This document shows positions 12,654-64,000 of a stretch of DNA of 64,000 nt, piece after piece (the first letter of the stretch is position 1; the number at the start of each line of letters is the position of its first letter). A model generated the notes under the pieces. That model made no database searches. It was not told the DNA's origin and worked only from the letters and a program-made list of their open reading frames with translations. This DNA is from an uncultured Chloroflexia bacterium (lineage in GTDB: Bacteria > Chloroflexota > Limnocylindria > Limnocylindrales > CSP1-4), in the NCBI GenBank assembly GCA_963764515.1, contig CAVXSS010000002.1, positions 1,313,044-1,377,043 of the forward strand, read 5' to 3'. The position numbers were made by a program, and so were the translations under genes.

Positions 12654-13352
12654 GTGGACGAACCCGAGCCCTTCGTCAGCCGGGGCGGCCACAAGCTCGC
12701 GGCCGCGCTCGATGCCTTCGGGATCGATCCGGCCGGGCTCGTGTGCCTCGACGTCGGCGCCTCGACCGGCGGCTTCACGGATGTCCTGCTGCAGCGCGGT
12801 GCGAGCCGCGTCTACGCGCTCGACGTGGGACGCGGGCAGCTTGCCGAACCGCTGCGCCGCGAGCCGCGCGTCGTCTCGATGGAGCGCACGAACGCACGCA
12901 CCCTGACCTCGACGACGCTTCCCGAGCCGATCGCGCTCGCCACGATCGACGTCTCGTTCATCTCCCTGGACCTCGTCCTCAAGCCGGTCCTCGCGACGCT
13001 GGCCCATGCGGGCCACATCGTCGCGCTCGTCAAGCCGCAGTTCGAGGCGGGACGCGGCCGCACCGATCATGGCGTCGTCCGCGACCCGGCCGTGCACGCA
13101 GAGGTCCTGGAACGCATCGTGGATCGCGCCCAGGCGCTCGGTCTCGGGACCCGTGACGTCATCGCCTCGCCGCTCCTGGGGCCGCAGGGGAACCGCGAGT
13201 TCTTCGTTCACCTCGCGCCCGGACCCGGTTGTGCCGATGCCCCCAAGCGGATCGCGACCGTCACGACGCCACCGGAAGGCACGCCACCAGAAGGGACGCA
13301 ACGAGAAGGGACGCAACGAGAAGGCACGCAACGTAAAGGCACCCACACATGA
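12654..13352 (+). CDS. tlyA: 16S/23S rRNA (cytidine-2'-O)-methyltransferase TlyA, FtsJ-like methyltransferase domain portion
   Basis: VSRGGHKLAAALDAFGID...CLDVGASTGGFTDVLLQRGASRVYALDVGRGQL is the TlyA SAM-methyltransferase signature. ATGA overlap with nadK. Confidence 0.75.
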   Translation: MDEPEPFVSRGGHKLAAALDAFGIDPAGLVCLDVGASTGGFTDVLLQRGASRVYALDVGRGQLAEPLRREPRVVSMERTNARTLTSTTLPEPIALATIDVSFISLDLVLKPVLATLAHAGHIVALVKPQFEAGRGRTDHGVVRDPAVHAEVLERIVDRAQALGLGTRDVIASPLLGPQGNREFFVHLAPGPGCADAPKRIATVTTPPEGTPPEGTQREGTQREGTQRKGTHT

Positions 13353-16910: not shown

Positions 16911-17738
16911 ATGGGCTTCGCCGAATCCTTGATGTCGACCGGTGAACGGATCACGCATCGCGAGAAGCAGCACTGGTTCGTGTTCGTGTGGGGAGCGCGC
17001 TTCACGATCCTGGCGCTGATCGTCGGCCTGATCCTGGCCTTCATCGGCGCGGGCATGGCGCAGGACGGCTTCTCCGGTAGCGTCCGGACCATCCTCACCT
17101 GGGTGGTCGTGATCATCTTCGTCGTCGGGCTCGCGGTGCTGGTCTGGACCGTGCTCCACTACCTGAACCAGGAATACATCATCACCAACCGCCGCGTGCT
17201 CCAGGTGAGTGGGGTCCTCAACAAGGCCTCGAGCGACAGTTCGCTCGAGAAGATCAACGACGCACGCCTCGAGCAGTCGCTCGTCGGGCGGATGTTCGGG
17301 TTCGGAGACCTCGACGTCATGACCGCCGCCGAGGTCGGCATCGAGCGCTTCCGCATGATCAAGGATCCGATCGGGTTCAAGAAGGCGATGCTCGACGCCA
17401 AGCACGAGTTCGAGATCGACATGGAGCGGCAGAGTTGGCCGCCGAGCCCGCCCGCCCGCGCGCCGGGCGATGGATCCTCAGCAAGCCCCGACAGTCCGAC
17501 GACGACCACACCGCTGCCCGGTGGCGCGCCGGCGGCCGTCGCCGCGGCCCCGATGGTCGCGCCGGCCCCGGCCGCCCCGCCGGCCCAGCCCGCCGCGCCG
17601 GCCCAGCCCGCGCCGCGCGACCTGAGCCCCGACGAGGTCACGCGGACGCTCGCGAGCCTCGCCGACCTTCGCGATCGAGGCGCCATCAGCGCCGAGGAAT
17701 ATGAGACGAAGAAGGCCGACCTGCTCGGACGACTCTGA
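16911..17738 (+). CDS. membrane PH-domain (bPH_2/YdbT-like) protein with C-terminal SHOCT domain
   Basis: Two TM helices flank a PH-like domain (YIITNRRVLQVSG). P/A-rich linker. C-terminal SHOCT-like LASLADLRDRGAISAEEYETKKADLL. RBS AAAGGGAGG upstream. Confidence 0.7.
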   Translation: MGFAESLMSTGERITHREKQHWFVFVWGARFTILALIVGLILAFIGAGMAQDGFSGSVRTILTWVVVIIFVVGLAVLVWTVLHYLNQEYIITNRRVLQVSGVLNKASSDSSLEKINDARLEQSLVGRMFGFGDLDVMTAAEVGIERFRMIKDPIGFKKAMLDAKHEFEIDMERQSWPPSPPARAPGDGSSASPDSPTTTTPLPGGAPAAVAAAPMVAPAPAAPPAQPAAPAQPAPRDLSPDEVTRTLASLADLRDRGAISAEEYETKKADLLGRL

Positions 17739-25859: not shown

Positions 25860-26112
25860 CAGAGGTAGGGCCTGCCGGCCGCATCCAGGTTGCCCATGGT
25901 TGGCGCTGCAGAACGACGCCTCAGGGGTTGCCCCGATGACTGCCAGTCACGAATCACTGTATGGCGAACCTTCAGGCGGCACTCCGGGACCGTTCGTGCG
26001 AGAGGGCGCGACTGTCAGTCACCAAACCCTGCGTCGGACGTCCTCCAAGGGCCGCGTCTTCGATCCGGCGCACGAAACCGTGACTGCTGGTCACGCCACT
26101 CGGGCGGCGACG
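25860..26112. repeat. cluster of palindromic repeats (locus b of the dispersed family)
   Basis: Three units with cores TGACTGcCAGTCA, GACTGtCAGTC and GTGACtgctgGTCAC, each followed by GAAWC. ORFs predicted here translate to repetitive T(A/V)SH peptides, so the region is taken as non-coding. Confidence 0.5.
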
Positions 26113-26593: not shown

Positions 26594-27793
26594 ATGCAGT
26601 GTTTTCATCGATTGCGGCGTTTCGCCGCTGCAGGTAGCGTCGGGTCGGAGCCCCGCCGTGGCCCCATGCGTCGTGGCGATGGGCGGGCGATGTCGCACGA
26701 GGGGACCACGTGGCTGGGGAAGAACCGAATGACGACGGCTCTCGGTCCGGTCAGCGACCGGAGGGCTCCGGCGAGCCGTCAGGTCGTCGATCCCGGACGA
26801 GCGCTGAGGTCCGATCAGGCCGCCGCCGACATGGATCAGACGTCCTCGGATGCGGATCAGACATCGTCCGATGCCGACCAGGCAGCCTCGGCGACGGATC
26901 AGCGGAGTGCCGATCGGGACCAGCAGGCGTCGGACCGTGACCAGGCAGCGGCCGACCGCGATCACGGTGCCGGGACTCCGACGGCCCTTGGCGAACGCGC
27001 CTACCTCGCGTCGCGCGAGGAGCGAGAGACCGTCACGGTCGAACGTCAGGGCAACGAGCTCCAACGCCAGGCAACGACACGGGACCGGGAGGAGACGGCA
27101 CGGGACCGTGATCGGGTCGCCGACGCACGGGACGAGGCCGCTCGCGATCGCGACAAGGAGACGGCTCGCCTGATCGGGGACGCGGCTGAACCTGGGTCGT
27201 CGCTCATCGATCAGCTGGAGCGCCTCAGTACGGAAGCAGCTGCCGATCGGGCGCGCGCGGCGGGAGATCGGGCGCGGGCCGCGCGTGATCGGCTGAACGC
27301 TGCCCGCGAGCGGCAGCGGCTCGAAGCCGAGCTGCAGGCGGTCCACCTCGACGAGCTGACCGGTGCGTACCGCCGCGAGCTGGGCCAGCTGGCACTCACC
27401 CACGAGATCGACCGGGCGCGACGCTCGGACGGCCGATTCATCCTGGTGTTCGTGGACGTGGACCGGCTCAAGGCCGTGAACGACCGCGAAGGCCATGCCG
27501 CGGGCGATCGTGTGCTGCAGGTGGTGGCCCACGCGCTCCAGACGAGGCTGCGCTCGTTCGACCCGATCGTCCGATACGGGGGCGACGAGTTCGTGTGCGG
27601 GCTGGGCGGCGCGGACATCGCCGAGGTGTCGCGGCGCTTCGATTCGATCGTCGAGGCGATCCAGGCGGAGGTCCGCGGCGGGATCAGTTTCGGCATGGCG
27701 ACGCTCGCGGCCGACGACACGCTCGAACAGCTGATCGATCGCGCAGATGTGGCGATGCTCCAGGCGAGAGCCGACCGCCAAGCTCGCGACTGA
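26594..27793 (+). CDS. diguanylate cyclase (GGDEF domain) with N-terminal charged heptad-repeat/coiled-coil region
   Basis: C-terminal GGDEF domain ([11 protein letters not shown], with [16 protein letters not shown] upstream). The N-terminal ~180 aa is D/R/Q/A-rich, with seven DxDQxxS heptads. The start may be at 26690. Confidence 0.8.
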
Positions 27794-31623: not shown

Positions 31624-32022
31624 ATGAGCCTCCGATATGGCTGGCGCGACCCGTTCGACAACGCGGCCGTCGACGCGCTGCATGCGGAGGCATTCGGCCA
31701 TCCGGTGCTCGGCGACGATTGGGTGGGACAGGTCGAGGGCCACAGCCTTGGCTGGGTCTGTGCGTGGGACGGCGATGAGCTCGTCGGATTCGTCAACGTC
31801 GCCTGGGATGGCGGCGTCCATGCCTTCATCCTCGACACGATGGTCCTCGCGAGGGCCCAGCGACGCGGCATCGCGACCGGGTTGGTGGCGCTGGCGGTGC
31901 AGCGAGCACGGGCCGCCGGGTGCGAGTGGCTACACGTCGACTTCGAGGACCATTTGCAGACCCTCTATTTCGATGCCTGTGGCTTCGTCCCGACGAATGC
32001 CGGCCTGATCAGGCTCGATTGA
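31624..32022 (+). CDS. GNAT family N-acetyltransferase
   Basis: Acetyl-CoA motif A QRRGIATGLVALAV and a GNAT-sized (132 aa) fold. Confidence 0.75.
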   Translation: MSLRYGWRDPFDNAAVDALHAEAFGHPVLGDDWVGQVEGHSLGWVCAWDGDELVGFVNVAWDGGVHAFILDTMVLARAQRRGIATGLVALAVQRARAAGCEWLHVDFEDHLQTLYFDACGFVPTNAGLIRLD

Positions 32023-32195
32023 CGGCCGCGTCCGACGGTGCTCGCCGTGCACGGCCGTGCACGAGGGCGGCGCGGCCGCGCCGCCCTCGTGAGATCTGCC
32101 CGGGGCGAACGCCGATCGCCAGGCAGATGCGTGCCGGATCCCGGCCCGAGCCGCCGACACCGGCCGGTCAGCGGCATGCCGCGGGTGCCCCGATA

Positions 32196-32630
32196 ATGGC
32201 CGCCATCGCCGAGCACATCGATGGAGGCCTACAGAGACCCGTGCCACCGATCGACGAACTGACCCGCATCGAGCCCGTCCACCTGGCGCGGCTCGACCAC
32301 CACGGCATCTTCACGACCGGCCTCCTGCTCGAGGTGTCCGAGACGCCGACCCGTCGCCAGACCCTGGCCGACCAGGTCGTCGCGACCACGAACGACGTGC
32401 TCGAATGGCGGGACGAAGCATTGATGCTCAACCTGGCCAGCTTCGGGCCCGATGAGCACCAGCTCTTCATCCAGGCCGGCATCGAGGGGCTACGCGGCAT
32501 CCTGGCCCTCGATGCAGACGCCTTCCGCCTCCGGATCCACGCTGCAGCGGCTGAGCTCGGGGTCGACCCACCGAGCGATCTGACGCTCCACGGCTGGTGG
32601 GAACAGGCCCAGACCCTCGAGGAGGAGTAG
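32196..32630 (+). CDS. DUF4332-like helical protein
   Basis: 144-aa ORF from ATG 32196. The family assignment is tentative. The table ORF from 31920 overlaps the GNAT gene and is rejected. Confidence 0.5.
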   Translation: MAAIAEHIDGGLQRPVPPIDELTRIEPVHLARLDHHGIFTTGLLLEVSETPTRRQTLADQVVATTNDVLEWRDEALMLNLASFGPDEHQLFIQAGIEGLRGILALDADAFRLRIHAAAAELGVDPPSDLTLHGWWEQAQTLEEE

Positions 32631-32639
32631 CGGGGAAGA

Positions 32640-33072
32640 GCCGCATCGGGCTCTCAAGGTGGGTTGGTGCGTGGTGCGCACCATTTCCTGCGTGGGCCGC
32701 GCTCGACCGGGCCGTCGGGCGCCCTCGGGCGCGTTCTGGTGCGTGGTCCGCACCGTGTCCTGCGCCGGGAGGTCGGGACCGGACCGCAGCGGGTCCTGGC
32801 GCAGGTATTGGTGCGTGCCACGCACCGGGATCCTCCGGACCGTGGCCACGCCCGTGACGGTCAGTCACGAGTCGCTGCACGACGGCCAGCGAAGGCCCGC
32901 CAGATCGCCTCACATGCAGGATTCCGTGACTCACGGGCACCGGATACTGCCCCGACAGCCCGCGATCGAGGGCGAAGGCCGCTCTGGCGGGCCGCCATGC
33001 AGGAAACCGAGACTGCGAGTCACGGCTCGGGCGACGGCCCGAGTCGTCCCGGCCGCGGAACGGGCTAGGATG
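32640..33072. repeat. cluster of palindromic repeats (locus c, largest copy array of the dispersed family)
   Basis: Three units TGGTGCG-N5-CGCACC...CCTGCG (N5 = TGGTG/TGGTC/TGCCA), then three units with GTGAC-N-GTCAC or GACTgcgAGTC cores, two of which are preceded by CATGCAGGAWWCCG. Many nested GC hairpins. Confidence 0.5.
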
Positions 33073-33077
33073 GCGCC

Positions 33078-33776
33078 GTGAGCAGTCTCGGCGGTCGCCT
33101 CGCCTCCATCGCGGTCGGGCTCGCTACCGCGATCGTCATCGTCGCGGTGGCGATCGTGCCGTTCCTGACGCCGGCCTGGGTCGGCTTCGAACAGGGACGC
33201 GCGCAGGCCCAGGCGTGGACCGGCTATGGCGCCGCGGACCTCCAGACCGCCACGAACGCCATCCTCGCCGACCTGGTCATCGGGCCGCCCGATTTCGATG
33301 TCGCGGTCGCGGGTGCTCCCGTCCTCGACGAACGCGAGCGCGATCACATGCGTGACGTCCGGACGGTGTTCGGGGGTCTGGCCATCGCGGCCGCGATCTC
33401 GGTGGTCCTGCTCCTCGTGGTGGCCGTGCGCCGTCGCGATCCCACCGCGACGTGGCGAGCCGCGAGGCGCGGCGCGACCGGCCTGGCCGTCGCGGTGGTC
33501 AGCCTCGGAGTCGTCGCACTGGTCGCGTTCGATACCCTGTTCGAGGTCTTCCACGAGGTCCTGTTCCCGGCCGGTTCCTACGACTTCGACCCGGCCACGG
33601 AACGGCTCGTCCAGCTCTTTCCGTTCCAGTTCTGGCAGGAGTCGGCGATCGCGGTGGGCGTCGTCATCGTGGTGATCTCGGCGCTGGTGGCGATCGTCGC
33701 CCACCGGCGCGAGGTCCGGCCATCCGCACGGACCTCGACCGACCCGAGCGCGGCACCGGTCGCGGAGCCCGGATGA
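33078..33776 (+). CDS. integral membrane protein, DUF1461/TIGR01906 (Lit-like) family
   Basis: Two TM segments flank a conserved domain. 232 aa. GTG start. Confidence 0.7.
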   Translation: MSSLGGRLASIAVGLATAIVIVAVAIVPFLTPAWVGFEQGRAQAQAWTGYGAADLQTATNAILADLVIGPPDFDVAVAGAPVLDERERDHMRDVRTVFGGLAIAAAISVVLLLVVAVRRRDPTATWRAARRGATGLAVAVVSLGVVALVAFDTLFEVFHEVLFPAGSYDFDPATERLVQLFPFQFWQESAIAVGVVIVVISALVAIVAHRREVRPSARTSTDPSAAPVAEPG

Positions 33777-43543: not shown

Positions 43544-44023
43544 ATGCGTTGCCCCCAGTGCGGCGAGCGCGAGACCCGCGTGGTCGACTCCCGCGACCTC
43601 GATGACTCCGCCACGATCCGTCGTCGACGCGAGTGCTCGTCCTGTGCGATGCGATTCACGACCTACGAGCGCGTCGAGGCTGCCCGCCTCGTCGTCATCA
43701 AGCGTGACGGATCGCGCCAGGAGTTCGACCGCGACCGGCTCGTCTCCGGTCTTCGCAAGGCGCTGACTCGCCGGCCGGTGCCCTCGGGCGCGGCCGAGGC
43801 GGCCGCGGACGCGATCGAGGCCGAGCTGCGCTCGTCGGGTACGAGCGAGGTGCCGTCCTCGAAGGTCGGCGCGATGGCGATGGATCAGCTGCGCGCCATC
43901 GACCAGATCGCCTACATCCGCTTCGCCAGCGTCTACGAGAGCTTCGAGGATCTCGAGGCGCTCAAGCGCGAGGTCGACAACCTGTACGAAGAGCGAGGCT
44001 CGCCCGGAGCCCTCGAGCCATGA
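43544..44023 (+). CDS. nrdR: transcriptional repressor NrdR
   Basis: MRCPQCGERETRVVDSRDLDDSATIRRRRECSSCAMRFTTYERVE zinc ribbon plus ATP-cone. The ATG at 43544 is preferred over the table start at 43517. Confidence 0.9.
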   Translation: MRCPQCGERETRVVDSRDLDDSATIRRRRECSSCAMRFTTYERVEAARLVVIKRDGSRQEFDRDRLVSGLRKALTRRPVPSGAAEAAADAIEAELRSSGTSEVPSSKVGAMAMDQLRAIDQIAYIRFASVYESFEDLEALKREVDNLYEERGSPGALEP

Positions 44024-45657
44024 GCGTCCTCTCGGATCGCGACATCCGCGCCGAGCTCGAGAGCGGTCGCGTCGTCATCCGCCCGTACGACTCGCACGAC
44101 CTGCAACCATCGTCGGTGGACCTGCATCTCGACCACAGCTTCCGTGTCTTCCGAAACAACCGCTATCCGTACATCGATGTCCGGGCGCCGCAGCCGGACC
44201 TGACCGAGCTGCTGACCGTCGAGGAAGACGAGCAATTCATCCTGCACCCCGGCGAGTTCGTGCTCGGACAGACCCACGAATGGGTGGAATTGCCGGACGA
44301 CCTTGTGGCCCGGCTGGAGGGCAAGGCGCTTGCCCTCGATACGCCGATCCCGACGCCATCCGGCTGGCGAACGATGGGCGACCTGGCGCCGGGCGACCAC
44401 GTCTTCGACGAGACCGGTGCCCCGACGGCCGTGGTGGCAGCAACGCCCCGGATGGTCGGCCGCCCGTGCCGCGAGGTGGTGTTCTCGGATGGGACGCGCA
44501 TCGTCGCCGATGCCTCCCATCAGTGGGTGACCGTCGACAAGAACGGTCGACATCAGGGACGCTCGCGGGCCGCGATCCGGACAACGGACGAGATCGCCCG
44601 ATCGCTGCGGATCCGTGGCGAGATGAACCATCACGTCCAGCTCGCCGGGCCGGTCCAGTACCCGCCGCGCCTGGACCTGCCGATCGAGCCGTACACCTTC
44701 GGCGCCTGGCTCGGTGACGGGACGACGACAAAGGCGGAGATCACATCGGTCGATGAGGAGGTTCTCGAACAGATCAGCGGGGACGGGTTCACGGTCAGAC
44801 GGCTGTCGTATGCGCCGCATGCCTATCGGATCGGAGAGGCTGGCCACACTCGCGATCTGGCCACGGGCCGCTATGCGCGGAATTCGTCCCTCTCGAGCCG
44901 GCTGCGATCCATGGGCGAGCTCGACGGCAAGTTCGTGCCCCGCCCGTATCTCGAGGCCGGCGTCGCTCAAAGGCTGGCGCTGCTCCAGGGACTCATGGAC
45001 ACCGACGGCTTCGTCGACGATATTGCCGGGCGCTGCGAGTTCACGAACACGAATGAGGGCATCGCCGACGCGGTCGTCGAACTAAGCGCGAGCCTTGGCT
45101 TCCGCCCGGTCAAGTCGATCGGACGGGCGACGTTGAATGGCGTCGACCACGGCCCGAAGTATCGAGTGAAGTTCACGCCGGATCGACCCGTCTTCCGACT
45201 CCCGAGGAAGCTGGCGCGCCAGAAGCCGGCCGACGCTCGGTATCACCGGTTCCGCGCCATCGACGTCGTTCTCGATGTGCCCTCGGTCCCGGTCCGCTGC
45301 ATCCAGGTCGCCGCACCCAGCGGCATGTTCCTCGCCTCGAGGTCGTTCATCCCGACGCACAACAGCTCACTCGGCCGGCTGGGCCTGCTCATCCACTCGA
45401 CGGCGGGCTACGTGGATCCCGGTTGGAAGGGCAACCTTACGCTCGAGCTGTCGAACGTCGCGAACCTGCCGATCGCCCTATACCAGGGGATGCGCATCGG
45501 CCAGATCTCGTTCTTCCGCATGTCGTCCCCGGTGGAGCGGCCATACGGATCGCCCGAGCTCGGGTCGAAGTACCAGGGGCAGTCGGAGCCGACGGCATCT
45601 GCCTTCCATCGCGATTTCGACGCCGGTCGCAAGACCGGGGAGCCGTCGCGGAACTAG
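44020..45657 (+). CDS. dcd: dCTP deaminase (Dcd) interrupted by an in-frame intein (545-aa precursor; exteins 102 + 97 aa)
   Basis: N-extein MSVLSDRDIRAELESGRVVIRPYD...HPGEFVLGQTHEWVELPDDLVARLEGK and C-extein SSLGRLGLLIHSTAGYVDPGWKGNLTLELSNVANLPIALYQGMRIGQISFF are collinear with Dcd (EGK|SSLxRLGL junction). The intervening 346 aa have intein blocks. ATGA overlap with nrdR. Confidence 0.85.
   Translation: MSVLSDRDIRAELESGRVVIRPYDSHDLQPSSVDLHLDHSFRVFRNNRYPYIDVRAPQPDLTELLTVEEDEQFILHPGEFVLGQTHEWVELPDDLVARLEGKALALDTPIPTPSGWRTMGDLAPGDHVFDETGAPTAVVAATPRMVGRPCREVVFSDGTRIVADASHQWVTVDKNGRHQGRSRAAIRTTDEIARSLRIRGEMNHHVQLAGPVQYPPRLDLPIEPYTFGAWLGDGTTTKAEITSVDEEVLEQISGDGFTVRRLSYAPHAYRIGEAGHTRDLATGRYARNSSLSSRLRSMGELDGKFVPRPYLEAGVAQRLALLQGLMDTDGFVDDIAGRCEFTNTNEGIADAVVELSASLGFRPVKSIGRATLNGVDHGPKYRVKFTPDRPVFRLPRKLARQKPADARYHRFRAIDVVLDVPSVPVRCIQVAAPSGMFLASRSFIPTHNSSLGRLGLLIHSTAGYVDPGWKGNLTLELSNVANLPIALYQGMRIGQISFFRMSSPVERPYGSPELGSKYQGQSEPTASAFHRDFDAGRKTGEPSRN
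44326..45363 (+). mobile_element. intein (class-3-like, WCT motif) with LAGLIDADG homing endonuclease, inserted in dcd
   Basis: Block A ALALDTPIPTPSGW (Ala1). Block B RIVADASHQW (W at B12). Endonuclease motifs YTFGAWLGDGTT and LALLQGLMDTDGFV. Block F VPVRCIQV (Cys at F4). Block G FIPTHN followed by Ser+1. Confidence 0.8.
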
Positions 45658-46559: not shown

Positions 46560-46760
46560 CAGATGTTCTTCAGGCGGTCACTCGACAGGGGATTCGTGTC
46601 AGATGTGCGCCCCACGGATCATCTGACAGATCCTTCGCCGCGACCCGAGCGTGGGCCGTGCTCAAGCTGCCGATGAAAGCGCCGCTCGCCCTGTCCAATG
46701 ACCGTGTGAGTGTCATTTGACAGAAACTTCGGGCACGTGTCGGACCCCGCGGGGCCTGTC
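46560..46760. repeat. palindrome-rich intergenic region between convergent genes (locus d, related to the dispersed repeat family)
   Basis: GTCAGATG-N14-CATCTGAC (containing TGCGCCCCACGG, as in locus a) and TGTCA-TT-TGACAGAAAC. It may double as a bidirectional terminator. Confidence 0.4.
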
Positions 46761-55327: not shown

Positions 55328-56852
55328 CCGTCGAACCGTCGGGGCCGTCGGTCACCGTCCACCCGGCGGCCTCGATCCCGGCGCGGAGCGCGTCGGCCCG
55401 GGCATAGTCCCTGGCCGCTCGGGCGACCGTTCGAGCTTCGACGAGCGCGGCGACGTCGCCCGGGATCTCGTCGCCCTCGGGCGCGGACTCCCAGACCGCG
55501 TGTAGGCCCAGGCCGAGGACCGCGTCCGCGTCGAGCACCAGCCAGCGCCGCTCGTCGGCGGGCAGGTCCGCACGCAGGATCTCGCGGATGACCGCGAGCC
55601 CCGTCGAGAGGTCCAGGTCGTCATCGATCGCGTCGACGAACCGTTGGTGGAGCGCCAGCCCGGCCCCCGACAGCGGCGCGACGGGTGCGTGCGCGCGATC
55701 GATCAGGGTCCATGGTCCGCCATCGCCGTGACCGCCCACGCCATCGGCGATGCCCAGCGGCCGGTCGCCGGCAGCGCCGGCACGCAGCGGCGTCGGGGCA
55801 GCCCACGGACCGTCGAGGGGCGCGGGGCCAAGGCCCCGCAGCCTCGATCGAAGCGACGTCAGCGCGGAGGCTGCCGCGGCGATCGACGCGTCCGAGTACT
55901 CCAGCTTGTGGCTGTACCGCGAGGTCATCGCGAGGTACCGCAGCGCCAGCGGGTCGACGCCCCGGTCCGCGAGCTCGGTCACGCGCTGGAAGTTGCCCGC
56001 GGACTTGGCCATCTTCTTGCCGGACATGAGCAGGAACTCGCCGTGGACCCAGTGGTTGGCCGGCGGTCCGCCCACGAGCGGCGCCGACTGCGCGATCTCG
56101 TCCTCGTGATGGGGGAAGACGTTGTCGATGCCGCCCGTGTGGATGTCGAACCGGTCGCCGAGATAGCGCATGGCCATCGCCGAGCATTCCAGGTGCCAGC
56201 CGGGATAGCCATCGCCCCAACGCTCCGTCGGCCACTTCAGGATCCGTCCCTCGCCGGCCGCCTTCCAGAGCGCGAAATCCGCTGGGTCGCGCTTGTCCGG
56301 CTCGACCTCGCCGCGATGCCCCGCGCGCAGCTCATCGAGCGTGTTGCCCGACAACCGACCGTAGCCCTCGAACGCTCCGACGGCGTAGTACACGTTGCCC
56401 GCCGACGAGGCGTACGCATAGCCCGCATCCTGGAGGCGCTCGGCGAGGGCGACCATCTCGACGATGTGCTCGGTGGCCCGCGGAAAGACGTTGGCGGGCA
56501 GGATGTTGACGGCCGCCTCGTCCGCGTGGAACGCCGCCTCGTACGCGGCGGCGATCTCGGCCGGGGTCTTGTCCTCGAGGCCGGCCCCGATGAGCATCCG
56601 GTCCTCGCCTCGATCGAAGCGCTCGTCGCGCAGGTGGCCGACGTCGGTGATGTTCTTGACGTGGAAGACCGTCAGGCCGTGGTACAGCAGGACCCGGCGG
56701 ATGAGGTCCGCGAGCAGGTAGCTGCGCAGGTTGCCGACGTGCGCGTAGCGGTAGACCGTGGGGCCGCACGTGTACATCCGGACGCGACCGGGTTCGATCG
56801 GCTCGACCGGTCGCACCGAGCGGCTGAGGGTATCGCGCAGGTGGAGGGTCAC
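55278..56852 (-). CDS. cysS: cysteine--tRNA ligase (CysRS-type class I synthetase; possibly a paralog)
   Basis: YTCGPTVYRYAHVGN (HIGH variant HVGN), Zn ligands WHLECSAM and FPHHEDEIAQS, KMSKS variant KKMAKS. A ~60-aa Gly/Pro/Ala-rich insertion in the anticodon-binding region. 524 aa. Confidence 0.8.
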   Translation of the reverse strand: MTLHLRDTLSRSVRPVEPIEPGRVRMYTCGPTVYRYAHVGNLRSYLLADLIRRVLLYHGLTVFHVKNITDVGHLRDERFDRGEDRMLIGAGLEDKTPAEIAAAYEAAFHADEAAVNILPANVFPRATEHIVEMVALAERLQDAGYAYASSAGNVYYAVGAFEGYGRLSGNTLDELRAGHRGEVEPDKRDPADFALWKAAGEGRILKWPTERWGDGYPGWHLECSAMAMRYLGDRFDIHTGGIDNVFPHHEDEIAQSAPLVGGPPANHWVHGEFLLMSGKKMAKSAGNFQRVTELADRGVDPLALRYLAMTSRYSHKLEYSDASIAAAASALTSLRSRLRGLGPAPLDGPWAAPTPLRAGAAGDRPLGIADGVGGHGDGGPWTLIDRAHAPVAPLSGAGLALHQRFVDAIDDDLDLSTGLAVIREILRADLPADERRWLVLDADAVLGLGLHAVWESAPEGDEIPGDVAALVEARTVARAARDYARADALRAGIEAAGWTVTDGPDGSTVRRTASAGRGETRTDR

Positions 56853-56939
56853 GGGAAGGGCTCACGGGCGGGTGGGGTCCGGTCATCGTACCCGGGCCTT
56901 CGAAGGGCCATCCCGTCGGTCGCCCGTATACTCCCGCCG

Positions 56940-58508
56940 ATGCGCCGCCCCTCGTCCCGCGCCGCCGCCCTCGGCCTGTTCGTCTCGCTATCGCTGCTGG
57001 GTGGCACCGCGGGTGTCCGGGCCGCCGATGCGCCGGTTCGCATCTTCACCGGCTCGGCGTTGACGCTCGACCCGGCGGTGCAGGGCGACGTGACCAGCGC
57101 GTCGATCACGGCCCAGCTGTTCGAGACCCTGACGACGTTCGACGCCAACCTCCGGCTGCAGCCGGCGCTCGCCGAGTCCTGGCGGACCGACGAGGGCGGC
57201 AGCCGCATCGTCTTCCATCTCCGACCGGGTCTCACCTTCTCCGACGGAAACCCGTTGCGCGCCAGCGACGTCGTTCGGAGCTGGCTCCGGCTCATCGACC
57301 CGACGACGCCGTCGCCGCTGGCGTCGCTCATGCTCGACGTCACGGGTGCGACCGCCTACCTCCAGGGCGCCTCGGACGCCTCCTCGGTCGGCCTGCACGC
57401 GGACGACGCCGACGGCGAGGTGACGGTCACCATGGTCCAGCCCGCATCGGATTTCGCGGACGTGGTGTCCGGCCCGTCGTTCGGGATCGTGCCTTCGGGC
57501 GTCGATCGGCCGGGCGCCTTCACGCCGGGTGCGGACTTCGTCGGTAGCGGCGGGTACGTCGCGACCGATGCGTCCGCCACAGGCCTGACGCTCCATGCCA
57601 ACGAGCGCTACTGGGCCGGTCGTCCGGCCATCGGCACGATCGAGCTCGTCGGGGACCTGGGCGGCCGCAGTGAGGTCGAGGTGTTCGAGGCCGGCGACCT
57701 CGATTACGCGCCGATCTCCTCGTCCGACGCCACCTGGATCGCCTACGACCCGACGCTCGGTCCGCAGCTGCGCGAGGTCCCGTCGATGGCGGTCGAGTAC
57801 TACGGGTTCGACACCACACGTCCGCCGTTCGATGACGTCCGGGTGCGTCGCGCGTTCGGGATGGCCGTCGACTGGCGCCGGATCGCGCGACTCGGCTCGT
57901 CCGACGGCGAGTCGGCCGTGGCGACCTCGATGGTGCCGCCGGGCGTGCCCGGCCGGTCGAGTCGCGACTTCCTGCCCCCCTACGACCCCGAAGCCGCCCG
58001 GACCCTGCTGGCCCAGGCTGGGTATCCAGGCGGTGCGGGCTTCCCGGCTGTCACGATGCAGACCAACGGTGGTTCGCACGACGAGGCGATCGTCAGCGAG
58101 GTCCGACGCGAGCTGGGCATCGACCTCGCCTACGAGACGATGGACTTCGAGACGTACTTCGAGCGACTCGCCGACGACCCGCCCGCGATCTGGTCACTCA
58201 GCTGGGTCGCCGACTACCCGGGGCGCAACGACTTCCTGGGCGTCCTGCTCGGCCGCGGATCCACGAACGACTACGGCCACTGGTCCTCCGACGAGTTCGA
58301 CGCCGCGATCGCGGACGCCGCCTCCGCGGGCGATATCGCGACGACCACCGCCGCGTACGACCGGGCGGAGGGCATCGTCGGCCGCGACGTGCCGGTCGTG
58401 CCCGTGTCGTACGGCACCGGCTGGGCCCTCTCTCGCGACGGCCTGCTGGGCGCCGGCCAGAACGGTCTCGGCATCATGCGCATGGCGGGGCTGGCATGGG
58501 CGCCGTGA
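56940..58508 (+). CDS. ABC transporter substrate-binding protein (family 5, peptide/nickel type)
   Basis: Signal peptide (AAALGLFVSLSLLGGTAGVRA). SBP_bac_5-like composition and length (522 aa). The table ORF starting at 55644 is antisense to cysS and rejected. Confidence 0.85.
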   Translation: MRRPSSRAAALGLFVSLSLLGGTAGVRAADAPVRIFTGSALTLDPAVQGDVTSASITAQLFETLTTFDANLRLQPALAESWRTDEGGSRIVFHLRPGLTFSDGNPLRASDVVRSWLRLIDPTTPSPLASLMLDVTGATAYLQGASDASSVGLHADDADGEVTVTMVQPASDFADVVSGPSFGIVPSGVDRPGAFTPGADFVGSGGYVATDASATGLTLHANERYWAGRPAIGTIELVGDLGGRSEVEVFEAGDLDYAPISSSDATWIAYDPTLGPQLREVPSMAVEYYGFDTTRPPFDDVRVRRAFGMAVDWRRIARLGSSDGESAVATSMVPPGVPGRSSRDFLPPYDPEAARTLLAQAGYPGGAGFPAVTMQTNGGSHDEAIVSEVRRELGIDLAYETMDFETYFERLADDPPAIWSLSWVADYPGRNDFLGVLLGRGSTNDYGHWSSDEFDAAIADAASAGDIATTTAAYDRAEGIVGRDVPVVPVSYGTGWALSRDGLLGAGQNGLGIMRMAGLAWAP

Positions 58509-59887
58509 TGCGCCGGGTCGTCGCGGCGATCATGGCGGCCGGATGGCTGGTCGCTGCCGTCGCGGCCCCTGCCTCGTCCGCCTCCGGGTTCGCCGACTTC
58601 GGAACGCCCAGCGCGATCGGTTCGTTCGGCGACGACATCGTCTTCCAGCAGCCGGTGACGGTCGACCGTCCGATCGCGCGCGCCGAGCTGCTGGTGACCG
58701 TCGCCGGTGCCCTCGGTCCGACCGTGTTCCCGATCCCGGCGCCGTCGGGTTCGGGCACGATCAGGCTGACCTACACGCTGTCACCGGCCGACGAGGGCCA
58801 CATCCTGCCCAATACCCCGATGCGGGCCAGCTGGCGGATCACCGCCGCGGCCGCCGGCGGTTCCGCGACCGACGCGGCCGACGTCGCGATCGGTCCCGAG
58901 GCGAGCCTCGTCTATGCGGATGCCCGGTTCGACTGGAAGACCGTGTCGGGCGACATCGTCCGCGTGCACTGGTACGAGGGCGGGGACGCGTTCGGGCAGG
59001 GCGCCCTGAAGATCGGCGAGGGGGCTGTGGAGCAGGCGGCCAGGCTCCTCGGCGTGCAGGAGACGAAGCCGGTCGATTTCTTCATCTACGCGGATCAGAC
59101 CGCCTTCTACGACGCCCTCGGTCCGGGGACCCGCGAGAACGTCGGTGGGGAGGCCGATGCCGACATCCGCACGCTGTTCGCGCTCATCCTGCCATCCGAG
59201 ATCGACCAGGCCTGGGTGAAGACCGTGATCCCGCATGAGCTGACCCACCTCGTCTTCGACACGGCGGTCCACAATCCGTACCACTTCCCGCCGCGCTGGC
59301 TGAACGAGGGCTTGGCCGTGTACGAGAGCGAGGGCTACGGTTCGGGCGACCGCGGGGCCGTCGCGGACGCCGCTCGCAGCGGCTCGCTCATCCCGCTGCC
59401 GGGCCTGGCCGGGCAGTTCCCGACGAGCGGGGACCGCTTCCGCCTCGCGTACGCCGAGAGCGTGTCCGCGATCGACTTCCTCGTCCGCACGCACGGTCAG
59501 GATGCCCTTGTCGCACTCATCGGTTCGTACGCCGACGGCGAGACGGACGACGAGGCATTCACGGCCGCGATCGGGCAGGACGTCGCGGCGTTCAATGCGG
59601 CATGGCTGGTCGACCAGGGTGCGGAGCCACCCACCTCGTTCGGTCCGGTGCCCGCTCCCGCCGGCCCCTTGCCGGCGGGCTGGGGGCTCGCGCCCGGTGC
59701 GAGCATCGCCCCGGGCGGGTCGACCCGCCCGGGCCCGACGGCCGCTGTCGTGCCCCCGACCTCGCCGAGCCCGCGCCAGGGCGACTCGATGGTAGCGGCC
59801 GTCGTCATCGTGGCCGTCCTCATGATCCTCGGCGTGGCCGGCCTCGCCGGGTACGCGGCTCGTCGCCGGCGGGGCGCCGACGAGTGA
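58496..59887 (+). CDS. putative secreted zinc metallopeptidase (peptidase MA-like) with C-terminal TM anchor
   Basis: Signal peptide. HELTHLVFD HExxH motif with downstream WLNEGLAVYESE. C-terminal TM helix plus RRRR stop-transfer. 13-nt overlap with the upstream gene. Confidence 0.6.
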   Translation: MGAVMRRVVAAIMAAGWLVAAVAAPASSASGFADFGTPSAIGSFGDDIVFQQPVTVDRPIARAELLVTVAGALGPTVFPIPAPSGSGTIRLTYTLSPADEGHILPNTPMRASWRITAAAAGGSATDAADVAIGPEASLVYADARFDWKTVSGDIVRVHWYEGGDAFGQGALKIGEGAVEQAARLLGVQETKPVDFFIYADQTAFYDALGPGTRENVGGEADADIRTLFALILPSEIDQAWVKTVIPHELTHLVFDTAVHNPYHFPPRWLNEGLAVYESEGYGSGDRGAVADAARSGSLIPLPGLAGQFPTSGDRFRLAYAESVSAIDFLVRTHGQDALVALIGSYADGETDDEAFTAAIGQDVAAFNAAWLVDQGAEPPTSFGPVPAPAGPLPAGWGLAPGASIAPGGSTRPGPTAAVVPPTSPSPRQGDSMVAAVVIVAVLMILGVAGLAGYAARRRRGADE

Positions 59888-60672
59888 CCGTCCTCGGGCG
59901 AATCCGCAACGTCCCGAGCTGGCAGGTGACCCTCGGGGCGGCCCTGCTCGGTCTGGGCTTCCTCATCGCCGCCCAGCTCGCGTCGGAAGGGCCCCGCGTG
60001 CGCTACACGACCCAGGAACGGACACCGCTGGTCGAGACCGCGAACGGGCTCCAGGCCCAGCAGGACGCGCTCAAGGATCGGCTGCTGGCGCTTCGTACCC
60101 AGATCGGCCAGCTCGAGGGCGCCGGTCACGGCTCGGCCGACCTGGTCCGCGAGCTCAACGACGAACTGGAGCAGGCACGGATCGCGGCCGGCCTGATCCC
60201 GCTGACCGGAACGGGCATCGTCCTCCAGCTCGAGGATTCCCTGCAGCCGGTGCCCGTCGACGCGAGCCAGGACGATTATCTCGTCGGGGCACGCGACATC
60301 CGCTCCGTCGTCGAGCAGCTGTGGCTGGCCGGGGCGGAGGCCGTCGCCGTGAACGGCGAGCGGATCACCCCGACCACGTCGGTCATCGACATCGGAACGT
60401 CCGTCCTGGTCAACGCGGCCTATCTCGCGCCCCCATACCAGCTCACGGCCCTGGGGCCGGTGGACCTGTACGACCGTCTCTCGGCGGCCCCCGGCTTCAT
60501 CGACTTCGTCCGAGCGCGGGCTGAGGGCTATGGGATCCGCCTCTCGTTCGCGGAGCCGTCGACGGTGGACGTCCCGGCCTTCGCGGGGACGGTCTCGTTG
60601 CGCTACTCCCGGCCACTGGCCTCACCATCGCCGACGCCCGGCCCGGGTCCCGGCGCGAGTCCTCCCGGCTGA
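59884..60672 (+). CDS. DUF881 domain-containing membrane protein
   Basis: N-terminal TM, coiled coil, C-terminal DUF881 block (VVGPG-like GTGIVLQLED...VAVNGERI). GTGA overlap with the upstream gene. Confidence 0.7.
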   Translation: MTVLGRIRNVPSWQVTLGAALLGLGFLIAAQLASEGPRVRYTTQERTPLVETANGLQAQQDALKDRLLALRTQIGQLEGAGHGSADLVRELNDELEQARIAAGLIPLTGTGIVLQLEDSLQPVPVDASQDDYLVGARDIRSVVEQLWLAGAEAVAVNGERITPTTSVIDIGTSVLVNAAYLAPPYQLTALGPVDLYDRLSAAPGFIDFVRARAEGYGIRLSFAEPSTVDVPAFAGTVSLRYSRPLASPSPTPGPGPGASPPG

Positions 60673-60677
60673 CCGCG

Positions 60678-61352
60678 ATGCGCGTTCGACGCAACCAGCT
60701 GACGCTCGCGGCCGTGGCATTCGTGCTCGGCGTGCTGGTCGTGGTCCAGCTGCGAGCCCAGGCCGGGAGCTCGGGGCTCGCGGCGCTCTCCACCCAGGAC
60801 CTCACGGTCTTCGTCGCGAGCGTGAACGAGCGGAACGACCAGCTGCGGGCGGAGATCGCGTCGCTCGACCGGGAGCTGGCCACGCTGACCTCGAACCAGG
60901 ACCGCGGCGAAGCCTCGATCGACGAGATCCGGGCCGACCTCCGTCGCGTGCGGGCCTACGCCGGGCTCGACCCGGTCGTGGGACCCGGCGTGACCATCAC
61001 GGTCAGCGGCCCCATCGACGGCCACGGTCTGGAGGACCTGATCAACGAACTGCGCGACGCGGGGGCCGAGGCGATGGCCTCGGGCGACGTGCGGCTGGTC
61101 CCAGCCGTCGTGGCGGTCGGGCCTCCCGGTGGCGCTACCCTGGACGGGACCAAGCTCGAGGACACATTCACGCTCGATGCCATCGGCGCATCGGAGCAGC
61201 TGACAGGGTCGCTGACGCGTTCGGGCGGCGTCATCGCACAGCTCGCCGCGACGCAACCGGAGGTCGTGGTCACGGTGACCCCGATGGACCACCTGGAGCT
61301 GCCCGCCACGAAACGGTCCCTGGTCCCGGTCAACGGTCATCCGCGGCTTTGA
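60678..61352 (+). CDS. DUF881 domain-containing membrane protein (second paralog)
   Basis: Same architecture (TM, coiled coil, VVGPGVTITVSGP, DVRLVPA). A tandem DUF881 pair occurs in actinobacterial and Bacillus division clusters. Confidence 0.7.
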   Translation: MRVRRNQLTLAAVAFVLGVLVVVQLRAQAGSSGLAALSTQDLTVFVASVNERNDQLRAEIASLDRELATLTSNQDRGEASIDEIRADLRRVRAYAGLDPVVGPGVTITVSGPIDGHGLEDLINELRDAGAEAMASGDVRLVPAVVAVGPPGGATLDGTKLEDTFTLDAIGASEQLTGSLTRSGGVIAQLAATQPEVVVTVTPMDHLELPATKRSLVPVNGHPRL

Positions 61353-61368
61353 TACCCTGACCGGCCCG

Positions 61369-61620
61369 ATGCACCAATCAGACGTCCTTCAGCTGTACCT
61401 GGGCGACATCGTCCGTCTCCGGCGCGCCCATCCGTGCGGGACCGACACGTGGCTCGTCGACCGCCTCGGCGCGGACATCGGCCTGCGCTGCCAGGGATGC
61501 GGGCGCCACGTGATGGTGGAGCGGCGGCACCTGGAGCGGCGGTTCGCGGGCTTCGTCGAGCGTGGCGATCCGGATCTCAGTGCCGCGCTGACGCCAACCG
61601 GCCCCGAAGGGTCTCCGTGA
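61369..61620 (+). CDS. small conserved Cys-containing protein (83 aa, DUF951-like)
   Basis: HPCGTD...CQGCGRH is a possible zinc ribbon. Sits between the DUF881 pair and a transporter, like the small protein in similar clusters. Family tentative. Confidence 0.45.
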   Translation: MHQSDVLQLYLGDIVRLRRAHPCGTDTWLVDRLGADIGLRCQGCGRHVMVERRHLERRFAGFVERGDPDLSAALTPTGPEGSP

Positions 61621-63110
61621 CGGCCGGGACGACCTCGACCGACGCCGGCGCGCTGGCCGTCTTCCGCAACGCAGGATTCCTTCGTCTCTGGCTCTCGCAG
61701 GCCGCCACCCAGATCGGCGGCAACATGGTCCTCTACGGGCTGACGGTCATCGTCGTCGAGTCGACCGGCTCGAAGACGGCGGTCAGCCTGCTGATCCTCA
61801 CGTTCCTGGTCCCGGCCGTCATCTTCTCGGCGGTGGCCGGCGTCTACGTCGACCGGATCGAGCGACGGACGATCCTGGTCGCGACCAACATCCTGCGCGG
61901 CGCGGCCTTCGTCGCCCTCTGGCTCATCGGGACGAACCTCGCGCTGATCCTCGTGCTGAACGTGCTGGTTTCGACGGTCACGGTGTTCTTCGCGCCCGCC
62001 GAAGCCGCGATGATCCCGAACCTCGTCGATCGGCGCCAGCTGCTGGCCGCGAACGGGATCTTCACGTTGACCCTCAACGCGGCGTTCGCGCTTGGGTTCG
62101 CCCTGCTCGGACCATTGGTGGTGAACATCGCCTCGCCCGAGGCCGTGATCCTTGTCGTGGCCGCGCTCTATTTCCTCGCCGCGGTCTTCTGCTTCACGCT
62201 GCCGTCGGCGCCGCCCCCCAAGGATGATCATGCCGGTCGCGTGGTGACCGAGGCCGAGCTCGCGATGACCTCCACGTTCTCCCTGTTCCGGGAGGGGCTC
62301 GCCTTCATCCGCTCGAACCGCTCGATCGGTTGGTCGCTGCTCTACCTGGGCATCACGGCATCGCTCGTCGGGGTCCTTGGCGTCCTTGGGCCGGACTTCG
62401 CGCAGGGGACCCTTGGCCTCGCAGCCAAGGACTTCGCGGTCGTCGTTCTGCCGCTCGGATTCGGGGTCGTGACCGGCATCCTGCTGCTCAACACCTACGG
62501 ACAGTACGTGCCTCGCCGGCGCGTCATCGAGGGCGGGCTCATCGCCCTCGGGGCGTTCCTCGGAGCGCTGTCGGTCTCGGGGCCGATCAGCCGCATCCTC
62601 CAGCGGACCGACGGGCCGGGCGGTTTCGACCTTTCGGGCATCACGTCACTGCTCGCGGTCGTCGTGTTCATCGCGCTGGGCGCGGGCATCGCCTATGCCT
62701 GCGTGGCCATCCCATCGCAGACCCAGCTGTCGGAGGACCTGCCGGAGGACGTCCGTGGGCGGGTCTTCGGAATCCTGAACATGCTCGTGTCGGTGGCCAG
62801 CTTCCTGCCGATCATCGTCGTCGGGCCGATCGCCGACCTGATCGGCACGACATGGGTCCTGTTCGCGGTCGCGGTGGTCGTGATGGTCTCGGGCATCGCG
62901 TCGGTGGTCCTGCGGGGGCCGCTCGGCGTCCTGGAGGCGCACTCCGCGGCCGACCCGCACACCGTCGATCCGATCGCCGCTGCCCTCGGCGCGGACCGAC
63001 CGACCTGGCAGGAGCACCACGAGCCGACCGCGGCGGACGGCGTCGAGGAACGGGCAGACACCGTCGATGTCGCCCTGGCCGGGCCGGCCGATCCGGCCGA
63101 CCGCGCCTAA
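61617..63110 (+). CDS. MFS transporter
   Basis: 12-14 predicted TM helices with an MFS motif (VDRIERRTILVATN). GTG start overlapping the upstream stop. The table ORF from 61434 is a longer variant. Confidence 0.8.
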   Translation: MTAGTTSTDAGALAVFRNAGFLRLWLSQAATQIGGNMVLYGLTVIVVESTGSKTAVSLLILTFLVPAVIFSAVAGVYVDRIERRTILVATNILRGAAFVALWLIGTNLALILVLNVLVSTVTVFFAPAEAAMIPNLVDRRQLLAANGIFTLTLNAAFALGFALLGPLVVNIASPEAVILVVAALYFLAAVFCFTLPSAPPPKDDHAGRVVTEAELAMTSTFSLFREGLAFIRSNRSIGWSLLYLGITASLVGVLGVLGPDFAQGTLGLAAKDFAVVVLPLGFGVVTGILLLNTYGQYVPRRRVIEGGLIALGAFLGALSVSGPISRILQRTDGPGGFDLSGITSLLAVVVFIALGAGIAYACVAIPSQTQLSEDLPEDVRGRVFGILNMLVSVASFLPIIVVGPIADLIGTTWVLFAVAVVVMVSGIASVVLRGPLGVLEAHSAADPHTVDPIAAALGADRPTWQEHHEPTAADGVEERADTVDVALAGPADPADRA

Positions 63111-63114
63111 GGCG

Positions 63115-64000
63115 ATGCCGCTCGATGTGCTGGTCACCGGCCGGATCGCCACGCTGGCCGGGCGGGCCGGATTCGGCTGGGTCGAGGCGATCGGCATCCG
63201 CGCGGGTCGGATCGCGTTCGCCGGCTCGGAGATCGAGCTCGAGACCCGGGCGGACCCCTTTACGATGCGGATCGCGCTGGAGCCCGACGAGGTCGCGATC
63301 CCCGGCCTGACCGATGCGCATCTCCACCTGGCACAGGCCGCGCGGGCCCTTCGCCAGGTGGACCTCTCGAACACCTCGACGCTCGAGGCGGGCATGGCCT
63401 GCGTCGGCGCCGCGCACGAAGCCACGACGGACCCCGAGGCCTGGCTCGACGGGCACGGCTGGGACCCGGATCGGTGGGGCCGATGGCCGACTGCGGACGA
63501 CCTCGAGCGGGTGGCACCGGGACGCCGCGTGATGCTCTGGGCACACGATCACCACGCCCTCCTCGCGAGTGTCGCCGCGCTCCGGACGGCCGGCGTCACG
63601 GCCGCGACGCCCGACCCACCGGGCGGCCTCGTCCGGCGAGCCCGGGACGGATCACCGGAGGGTGTCCTGTACGAGAGCGCGACGCGCCTCATCTCGGTGC
63701 ACCTCCCGGTGCCCGATCTTGCCGAGCTGGAGGCCGCCATCGCGATCGTCGGGCGGGAGCTGGTCTCGCTTGGCGTGGTCGCCTGTCACGATCCCGGTGC
63801 GCTGGCGCCCGACCCCGACCTCGCGTTCTCGTTCCCGGCGGTCGCCCACCTGGCCGACACGGGGCGGCTGCCCCTGCGCGTCCATGCAAGCCTGCGCGAC
63901 GACGCGCTCGAGACCGCGATCTCGCGCGGCCTGCGCAGCGGGGCTCCGCTTGGCGACGACCCCCACGGCCGAGCCCGCGTCGGCTGGCAGAAATGCTTCG
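63115..64000 (+). CDS. amidohydrolase family protein (3' end beyond window)
   Basis: Open frame from ATG 63115 to the window end. Metal-binding PGLTDAHLHL (HxH) is typical of the amidohydrolase superfamily. Confidence 0.6.
   Translation, partial: MPLDVLVTGRIATLAGRAGFGWVEAIGIRAGRIAFAGSEIELETRADPFTMRIALEPDEVAIPGLTDAHLHLAQAARALRQVDLSNTSTLEAGMACVGAAHEATTDPEAWLDGHGWDPDRWGRWPTADDLERVAPGRRVMLWAHDHHALLASVAALRTAGVTAATPDPPGGLVRRARDGSPEGVLYESATRLISVHLPVPDLAELEAAIAIVGRELVSLGVVACHDPGALAPDPDLAFSFPAVAHLADTGRLPLRVHASLRDDALETAISRGLRSGAPLGDDPHGRARVGWQKCF

Follow-up and report, generated by a model that had tools for sequence, protein, structure and literature searches.

The window analysed here, a stretch of 64,000 nt with a GC content of about 70%, comes from contig CAVXSS010000002.1 of an uncultured Chloroflexia bacterium (assembly GCA_963764515.1). 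Near its middle, an intergenic gap of 447 nt (32631-33077) separates a DUF4332 gene, on the left, from a Lit/DUF1461 gene, on the right. This gap holds a series of short palindromic units, each made of a hairpin and of a conserved motif on one of its sides (the tag), that we call array A. The same units form two smaller series, arrays C and D, elsewhere in the window. Array A is framed by the following features.

32241-32630, plus strand: DUF4332 gene (Pfam PF14229), 129 aa; its stop codon is the left border of the array
32636-32656, plus strand: hairpin GAGCC-GCATCG-GGCTC, found by reading the sequence directly after the DUF4332 stop codon, unrelated to the repeat family and the first helix in both folds of the gap
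33078-33776, plus strand: Lit/DUF1461 gene (Pfam PF07314), the right border of the array

Each unit spans about 34 nt and consists of a 17-nt hairpin, with a GC-rich stem of 5-7 bp and a loop of 3-5 nt, and of a one-sided tag of consensus N-WWW-CCTGCG(CC), with its CCTGCG core placed 4-5 nt away from the stem. The stem comes in two versions, GGTGCG-N5-CGCACC (type I) and GTGAC-N5-GTCAC (TGAC/GTCA type); from one version to the other, both partners have changed in a compensatory way in three of the six base pairs. The alignment of the 13 units that we identified shows that conservation is limited to the approximately 34 nt of hairpin and tag, and that TG...CA is invariant within the stem. Paired cells amount to 86% overall, against 11-42% after sliding the partner columns. 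The units are about 60-85% alike in pairwise comparisons and spacers are not conserved between arrays, so that the description of the unit types as near-identical, made in the original prediction from the sequence alone, was too strong. When single units are folded, A1 forms a 7-bp hairpin, and the tag is left unpaired. The tag thereby gives an orientation to an otherwise palindromic core. It is essentially one-sided, and we rejected the description of the unit as a symmetric 40-nt palindrome tagged at both ends because a second tag is weak and present only in A2, A3 and C3.

The type-I hairpins of the gap start at 32666, 32738 and 32810, at intervals of exactly 72 nt. Three such hairpins had been predicted, each with a downstream CCTGCG; the hairpins are indeed there, but the third (32810-32826) has its good tag, AATACCTGCGCC, on the minus strand. 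The three predicted hairpins of the TGAC/GTCA type are also found, at 32853-32869, 32922-32938 and 33009-33025, and CATGCAGGAWWCCG precedes two of them. To score the units we used two covariance models, one built from all 13 units (R1) and applied to the entire window with the filters disabled, and another built from the six units of the gap alone (R2). The inventory of units, with the scores under these models, is as follows.

A1, 32663-32696, plus strand: TGGTGCG-TGGTG-CGCACCA, then tag TTTCCTGCG; R1 35.7 bits
A2, 32735-32768, plus strand: GGTGCG-TGGTC-CGCACC, then GTGTCCTGCGCC; R1 33.3 bits; tandem copy of A1
A3, 32796-32829, minus strand: GGTGCG-TGGCA-CGCACC, then AATACCTGCGCC; R1 38.5 bits; tail-to-tail with A2
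A4, 32850-32883, plus strand: CGTGAC-GGTCA-GTCACG, then the degenerate tag AGTCGCTGCA; R1 30.7 bits
A5, 32911-32944, minus strand: CCGTG-AGT-CACGG, then AATCCTGCATG; R1 29.6 bits; tail-to-tail with A4 (inverted repeat)
A6, 32994-33027, minus strand: CGTGACT-CGC-AGTCTCG, then GTTTCCTGCATGG; R1 34.6 bits
C1, 11330-11363, plus strand: GGTGCG-CCCCA-CGCACC, then GAAACCTGCGCC; R1 38.2 bits, R2 29.7 bits; 35 nt past the dxs stop codon
C2, 11391-11424, plus strand: decayed stem GTTGCG-CCCGA-TGCACC, then GAATCCTGCGCC; R1 32.2 bits, R2 16.0 bits
C3, 11463-11496, plus strand: GTTGCG-CACCA-CGCATC, tag decayed; R1 25.5 bits
C4, 11525-11558, minus strand: TGCGT-CGG-ACGCA, then CGGATTCGTGC; R1 27.9 bits; adjoins the 3' end of an XRE-type helix-turn-helix gene (minus strand)
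D1, 25932-25965, plus strand: TGACT-GCC-AGTCA, then CGAATCACTG; R1 30.3 bits, R2 19.1 bits
D2, 26004-26037, plus strand: GACT-GTC-AGTC, then ACCAAACCCTGCG; R1 30.5 bits, R2 18.4 bits
D3, 26065-26098, minus strand: CGTGAC-CAGCA-GTCACG, then GTTTCGTGCGCC; R1 32.8 bits, R2 25.4 bits; tail-to-tail with D2; adjoins the 3' end of msrB

With R1, the 13 units score 25.5-38.5 bits: six in the gap (29.6-38.5 bits), four in array C and three in array D. The prediction that the gap carries the largest array, with at least six related units, therefore stands. Past these units come the reverse-strand echoes of their own palindromes, and the next independent site scores 16 bits. The best matches of R2 outside its training set are C1 (29.7 bits, E about 1e-5), D3 (25.4 bits), D1, D2, C3 and C2, and its first unrelated site scores 15.8 bits. 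Because R2 was trained on the gap alone and ranks arrays C and D at the top, this cross-validation is an unbiased confirmation of the recurrence that had been claimed at 11.3 and 25.9 kb. The claim did not hold at 46.6 kb, where a locus between convergent metallo-beta-lactamase-fold and AhpC/TSA genes is recovered by neither model, and where the short collinear matches are no stronger than those of 176 random control segments.

46585-46645, no strand assigned: doubtful decayed relative, with a 9-bp stem TGTCAGATG/CATCTGACA and the tag-like flanks GGGGATTCG and GATCCTTCGCC

The loop of this locus holds GTGCGCCCCACG, identical at 12 of 12 nt to a part of C1, and it may be a decayed or rearranged member of the family.

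We then compared these frequencies with those expected by chance. The exact stem GGTGCG-N5-CGCACC is present four times in the window, and five times when up to one mismatch is allowed, against 1.2 expected (five were reached in 1 of 100 shuffles). The tag alone (RWWWCCTGCGCC, up to one mismatch) has 11 occurrences where 3.25 are expected; the arrays account for five of them, and the remainder is at the level of chance. A loose pattern of hairpin plus CCTGC is not specific, with 0.25 occurrences per kb in the window and up to 1.3 per kb in control loci. Specificity is thus a property of the full unit and of its clustering, not of the loose pattern, and the full units of the window are beyond chance by both models and by the controls. 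Among the matches listed, we found no second unit near the match in 736 kb of GC-rich loci, each picked for one exact GGTGCG-N5-CGCACC-N4-CCTGCG match. There are also no further units in the flanks of the window on the same contig (7.6 kb on each side, 15 kb in all).

The arrays have a characteristic placement and internal organisation. All 13 units are extragenic and lie in three intergenic gaps, where the arrays occupy stretches of about 250-450 nt. Array A follows the stop codon of the DUF4332 gene, array C lies between the stop codons of the convergent dxs (plus strand) and XRE-type helix-turn-helix (minus strand) genes, and array D between a small lipoprotein open reading frame (ORF, plus strand) and the stop codon of the convergent msrB (minus strand). 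As a consequence, five of the six bordering gene ends are 3' ends. Centre-to-centre distances are 72, 72, 43, 69 and 87 nt in array A, 61, 72 and 73 nt in array C, and 73 and 71 nt in array D; six of the ten intervals are of 69-73 nt. The orientations read + + - + - - in array A, + + + - in array C and + + - in array D, i.e., the spacing is regular, while the alternation of orientation that marks bacterial interspersed mosaic elements (BIMEs) is not strict. The units form head-to-tail runs, every array closes with an inverted unit, and all inverted pairs are tail-to-tail, with tags that face each other over 35-45 nt.

Some of these pairs fold together. The inverted arms of A2 and A3, of 46 nt, are complementary at 72%, and the two units together make a single long hairpin with a z of -4.9; the values are of -2.1 for A4/A5, -1.6 for D2/D3 and -1.3 for C3/C4. 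The outermost tags of array A, those of A1 and A6, are complementary as well (inverted repeat of 12 nt, 92%), which results in a nested arrangement, and the entire gap folded as RNA has a z of -3.7 relative to shuffles. Within the array, the segments of A1 and A2, each including hairpin, tag and spacer, are 71% identical over 101 nt (E 9e-8). Between arrays, matches are as good as within them (83% over 29 nt for A3 and C1, 80% over 40 nt for A6 and D3), and both stem types are present in more than one array. These two observations argue for transfer between loci, and the sequences suggest that units have been exchanged among them.

The comparison with relatives gives the history of the gap. 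We found DUF4332 homologues at 88-91% identity on long ENA assembly contigs (the protein of the window is 91% identical, over its full length, to homologue P0001). The distance from the DUF4332 stop codon to the Lit start codon is 34-54 nt in the relatives versus 447 nt in the window, and the junctions are conserved on both sides, which implies that an array of about 400 nt was added in the lineage of the window. The relatives keep the sequence that immediately precedes Lit, GGAACGGGCTAGGATGGCGC-GTG, so that the array was inserted upstream of the Lit gene. When R1 was run over 66 kb from four relatives, nothing significant was found (top score 17.9 bits, E 0.05). By this comparison of sequences, array A is a lineage-specific gain. 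In this lineage, the units came into intergenic DNA downstream of the 3' ends of genes, tandem duplication of segments of about 62-87 nt (hairpin, tag and spacer) amplified them locally, and inverted tail-to-tail pairs have also formed, among which at least one folds into a single long hairpin with a clear advantage over shuffles. Throughout, the hairpin has been preserved across two stem variants, together with the conserved one-sided tag.

Several other features of the locus deserve mention. A TAGGAT box (window 33066-33080) is found 6 nt 5' of the GTG start of Lit, and the relatives have TAGGAT or TACGAT at this place; this conservation suggests that the Lit transcript is leaderless and that its promoter (the -10 box) was preserved downstream of the inserted array. 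On the other side, a perfect palindrome of 14 bp, whose loop has 4 nt (CACGAGGGCGGCGC-ggcc-GCGCCGCCCTCGTG, 32060-32091), sits between an acetyltransferase-like ORF (31624-32022) and the DUF4332 gene. Upstream of DUF4332, relatives have DUF4396 and CHRD genes in four examined cases and CHRD alone in one, and a rough estimate of lengths suggests that these genes are too long for the space between the acetyltransferase-like ORF and DUF4332 here. Closer sequences also exist: contig_18905 (ena:ERZ25039539, 130 kb) encodes a Dxs protein 100% identical to that of the window and has five mismatches to the window in 21.3 kb (99.98% identical), and a contig of more than 1 Mb encodes RuvX, DUF881 and DUF951 proteins identical to those of the window. 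As for the taxon, protein names give hints: Dxs has a match at 82% in a 'Candidatus Limnocylindrales bacterium', and one DUF4332 match is labelled 'Chloroflexota bacterium'. From the same sample, contig_5156 is 98% identical to positions 55864-63342 and then diverges fully on both sides, an alignment that indicates co-assembled related strains or a rearrangement. No unit was found in 20 kb of this contig (98% identical over 7.5 kb).

The gap does not look like a gene. Its GC content at the three codon positions is 0.81/0.68/0.68, while the flanking gene has 0.75/0.41/0.88; four overlapping ORFs (119-157 aa) have no Pfam match, and the region is missing in relatives. We therefore rejected a protein-coding gap; the conserved protein that the original prediction had raised as a possible refutation is not what fills this space.

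We propose, with a probability of about 0.6, that the gap is the largest of three clusters of lineage-specific tagged palindromic repeats akin to the repetitive extragenic palindromic (REP) elements and BIMEs, and also to REPINs. REPINs are doublets of inverted REPs that form hairpins, and RAYTs, the REP-associated tyrosine transposases, are believed to mobilise them (Bertels and Rainey 2011; PMC3337134; PMC3116915). The REP half of the original suggestion of a REP/MIRU-like repeat is thus retained, on account of the tagged extragenic palindromes, their regular spacing, the inverted pairs and the gain in this lineage. Copies would move between loci in the form of single-stranded DNA folded into hairpins, on which a dedicated protein would act by recognising stem and tag. 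The best precedent for such an enzyme, by analogy, would be an HUH tyrosine transposase of the RAYT type, although our confidence in the specific involvement of a RAYT is considerably less than in the REP/BIME-like reading as a whole. Recombination or gene conversion could provide an alternative route of spread. Once inserted, the hairpins might act in the transcript, as 3'-end stabilisers or as termination barriers for the flanking genes, in the way described for REPs.

The kinship with REPs is apparent in metagenomes. A scan for two type-I hairpins at 40-70 nt from each other returned at least 120 loci, in contigs of 37-77% GC, and among the matches listed 310 of 388 type-I hairpins have GTAG or CTAC directly at the stem, which identifies these loci as REP/BIME arrays of the classical GTAG-tagged kind. 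Hence the type-I stem is a canonical REP stem. Relatives tagged with CCTGCG were absent among the matches listed. A stem common to GTAG-tagged REPs and to the family of the window may result either from convergence or from shared ancestry.

A number of points weigh against the REP/BIME-like reading. PMC3733652 (Di Nocera 2013) and PMC2817692 (Nunvar 2010) describe REP families of fewer than 20-100 and up to thousands of units, usually more than 100 per genome, and assign most REPs to GTAG- and CGTC-tagged super-families. The approximately 79 kb seen of this genome contain 13 units, in three arrays that all fall within a span of 22 kb, which does not speak for a high copy number. GTAG or CTAC abuts the stem in none of the 13 units, and neither the GTAG nor the CGTC tetranucleotide defines the family (the CGTC found in C1, at 2 nt from its stem, is most probably fortuitous). 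Head-to-tail runs, rare in GTAG/CGTC REPs according to PMC3733652, are common here, and unlike in REPINs the doublets are not repeated whole with their spacer, conservation being confined to hairpin and tag. No transposase, RAYT/Y1 (Pfam PF01797) included, turned up in the scanned ORFs of the window or in the genes called in its flanks. This absence from 79 kb says little, because RAYT genes are typically single-copy (PMC5581495). Furthermore, mobility is deduced from presence and absence between species rather than from target-site signatures, and the role of the hairpins in transcripts is proposed by analogy with REPs. Finally, the covariation of the stem consists of two variants in units that were partly selected as hairpins, and so is descriptive and no independent proof.

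The departures from the classical tags could have another meaning. One may tentatively suppose that the family is a third kind of tagged REP, in which the canonical GGTGCG/CGCACC stem is associated with the CCTGCG motif in place of GTAG or CGTC, in an uncultured lineage of soil Chloroflexota (probably Limnocylindria), with a cognate enzyme acting on single-stranded DNA that has another specificity (a divergent RAYT or an unrelated protein). The strict phasing of about 72 nt would then reflect the way in which units are measured and duplicated by the machinery of this enzyme or by a host protein bound to them. We regard this as a possibility, clearly less probable than the broader REP/BIME-like reading.

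The main rival of the REP/BIME-like reading involves no mobility at all. Ordinary 3'-end hairpins, either terminators devoid of U-tract or stabilisers of the 3' untranslated region, might have arisen in several copies on the spot, through slippage or unequal recombination, with shared constraints accounting for their resemblance and no dedicated protein involved. This would fit with the fact that every array lies downstream of the 3' end of a gene, two arrays being placed between convergent genes, with the evident tandem duplication inside arrays, with the GC-rich stems and with the presence of just three loci in 79 kb. Yet the loci, 7-21 kb apart, have in common an unpaired tag of 10-12 nt that is superfluous for a terminator hairpin, and the two stem types recur across arrays with 80-83% identity over 29-40 nt. 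Three to six units are found per site where one hairpin suffices. The region 32200-33400 has no terminator-like site made of a hairpin and a T-run, and we rejected intrinsic terminators for the gap on the grounds that its GC-rich hairpins lack the T-run. Relatives with the same genes have gaps of only 4-54 nt. We thus find multiplication in place unlikely, even if it is the strongest of the competing explanations.

Arrays of binding sites in duplex DNA, for a dimeric regulator or a nucleoid-associated protein, seem quite improbable. The cores have the required two-fold symmetry, with their invariant TG...CA, the six intervals of 69-73 bp would place sites on one face of the helix (about 72 bp being some seven helical turns), and the XRE-type helix-turn-helix gene abuts array C. 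But the half-sites are wholly different between the two stem types while pairing is kept, which is the signature of a folded single strand, and the tag is one-sided. The set of operators for a TGAC/GTCA-recognising regulator, offered in the original prediction, is not supported, for similar reasons: half of the units have the other stem, with compensatory changes, no sigma-70-like promoter was found in the gap, two of the arrays are between promoterless convergent 3' ends, and the sites are missing from relatives that have the same flanking genes.

One could also regard the gap as one or several structured small RNAs, or as a cis-regulatory leader of the Lit gene, given that it folds better than shuffles and that its hairpins covary. 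We consider this highly improbable. Across the window only two tRNAs reach the gathering score of Rfam, and in arrays A and C the few matches with E up to 10 have 11-17 bits, against gathering scores of 38-197. The gap lacks promoter and terminator signals, it has units in both orientations within a single array, the whole region is missing in relatives, and Lit retains a conserved -10 box, with a probable leaderless start, downstream of the array.

The last reading, a decayed orphan CRISPR array made of the three type-I units, is effectively refuted, since the 19-nt palindromic repeat present three times at exactly 72-nt spacing is only 84-89% alike between copies, the third copy is inverted by its tag (orientation is mixed), the would-be spacers are related to each other (71% over 101 nt), related units with other stems make two further mini-arrays, and the scanned ORFs of the window and the genes called in its flanks yielded no cas gene. 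CRISPR arrays have near-identical direct repeats of 23-47 nt in one orientation, with spacers that are unrelated, and usually cas genes. As for mycobacterial interspersed repetitive units (MIRUs), the other half of the original suggestion, such minisatellites are direct tandem repeats of 40-100 bp that are not palindromic. We rejected this assignment: the units of the gap are palindromic hairpins in both orientations, and no array whose period approaches 72 was reported there by Tandem Repeats Finder.

Other observations in the window are independent of the repeats. A LAGLIDADG_3 domain, at approximately residues 317-361, breaks up a dCTP deaminase-like gene (44020-45657, plus strand) that has N- and C-terminal DCD domains; this suggests an intein or the insertion of a homing endonuclease. 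At 13266-13342, in the 3' end of an FtsJ/TlyA-like gene (approximately 12654-13352), a 15-nt tandem repeat ACGCAACCAGAAGGC, in about 4.5 copies with 88-90% identity, would encode a tail of repeated pentapeptides. Tandem repeats of in-frame length are also found at 17533-17616 (9/18/36 nt, CGCCCGCCC-type), probably inside a bPH_2/SHOCT gene, and at 26833-26958 (21 nt), near the 5' part of a GGDEF gene.

The REP/BIME-like reading explains an unusually long gap by a recent expansion of repeats rather than by a hidden gene or regulator, and it makes arrays A, C and D likely strain-variable markers. If confirmed genome-wide, this would be a REP-like family whose terminal motif is new, from a phylum with few described repeats of this sort, and it would enable the search for a protein that recognises the hairpin and CCTGCG. 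It bears on the question, present in the REP literature, of whether tagged and 'untagged' palindromic repeats are related, and it alters no established concept.

The comparison with known systems shows which traits are shared. The GTAG/CGTC REPs are GC-rich palindromes of 20-40 nt, and like them the units of the window are palindromic and extragenic and have a motif at one end that remains unpaired. According to PMC3733652 and PMC2817692, REP dimers may be head-to-head, tail-to-tail or head-to-tail, with spacers of 20-100 bp, and clusters arise by tandem reiteration together with flanking DNA. The family of the window agrees on the dimers and their spacers, on the tandem-reiterated clusters with flanking DNA and on the patchy distribution among related genomes. 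The difference lies in the position of the motif: CCTGCG is here 4-5 nt off the stem, whereas the tetranucleotide of GTAG/CGTC REPs abuts it directly. As in REPINs, two inverted units with a short spacer fold as a long hairpin (A2/A3, and more weakly A4/A5 and D2/D3), and the units are non-coding and appear as lineage-specific gains. Among the Chloroflexi, PMC3733652 reports REP blocks clustered at a few loci in Thermomicrobium roseum; its GTAG-23 elements have the GTAG tag and are inserted within CCGSSCC...GGSSCGG palindromes, whereas the tag of our family is different. The same source indicates that REP-like families outside the GTAG/CGTC scheme exist and that 'many more likely occur'; in the parts of that source available, there is no mention of a cognate transposase for the 'untagged' ones. 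Like these families (of Mycobacterium tuberculosis, Deinococcus radiodurans, Bordetella, Brucella and Cyanobacteria), that of the window is made of short intergenic stem-loops outside the GTAG/CGTC scheme. It would be set apart from them by its conserved terminal motif.

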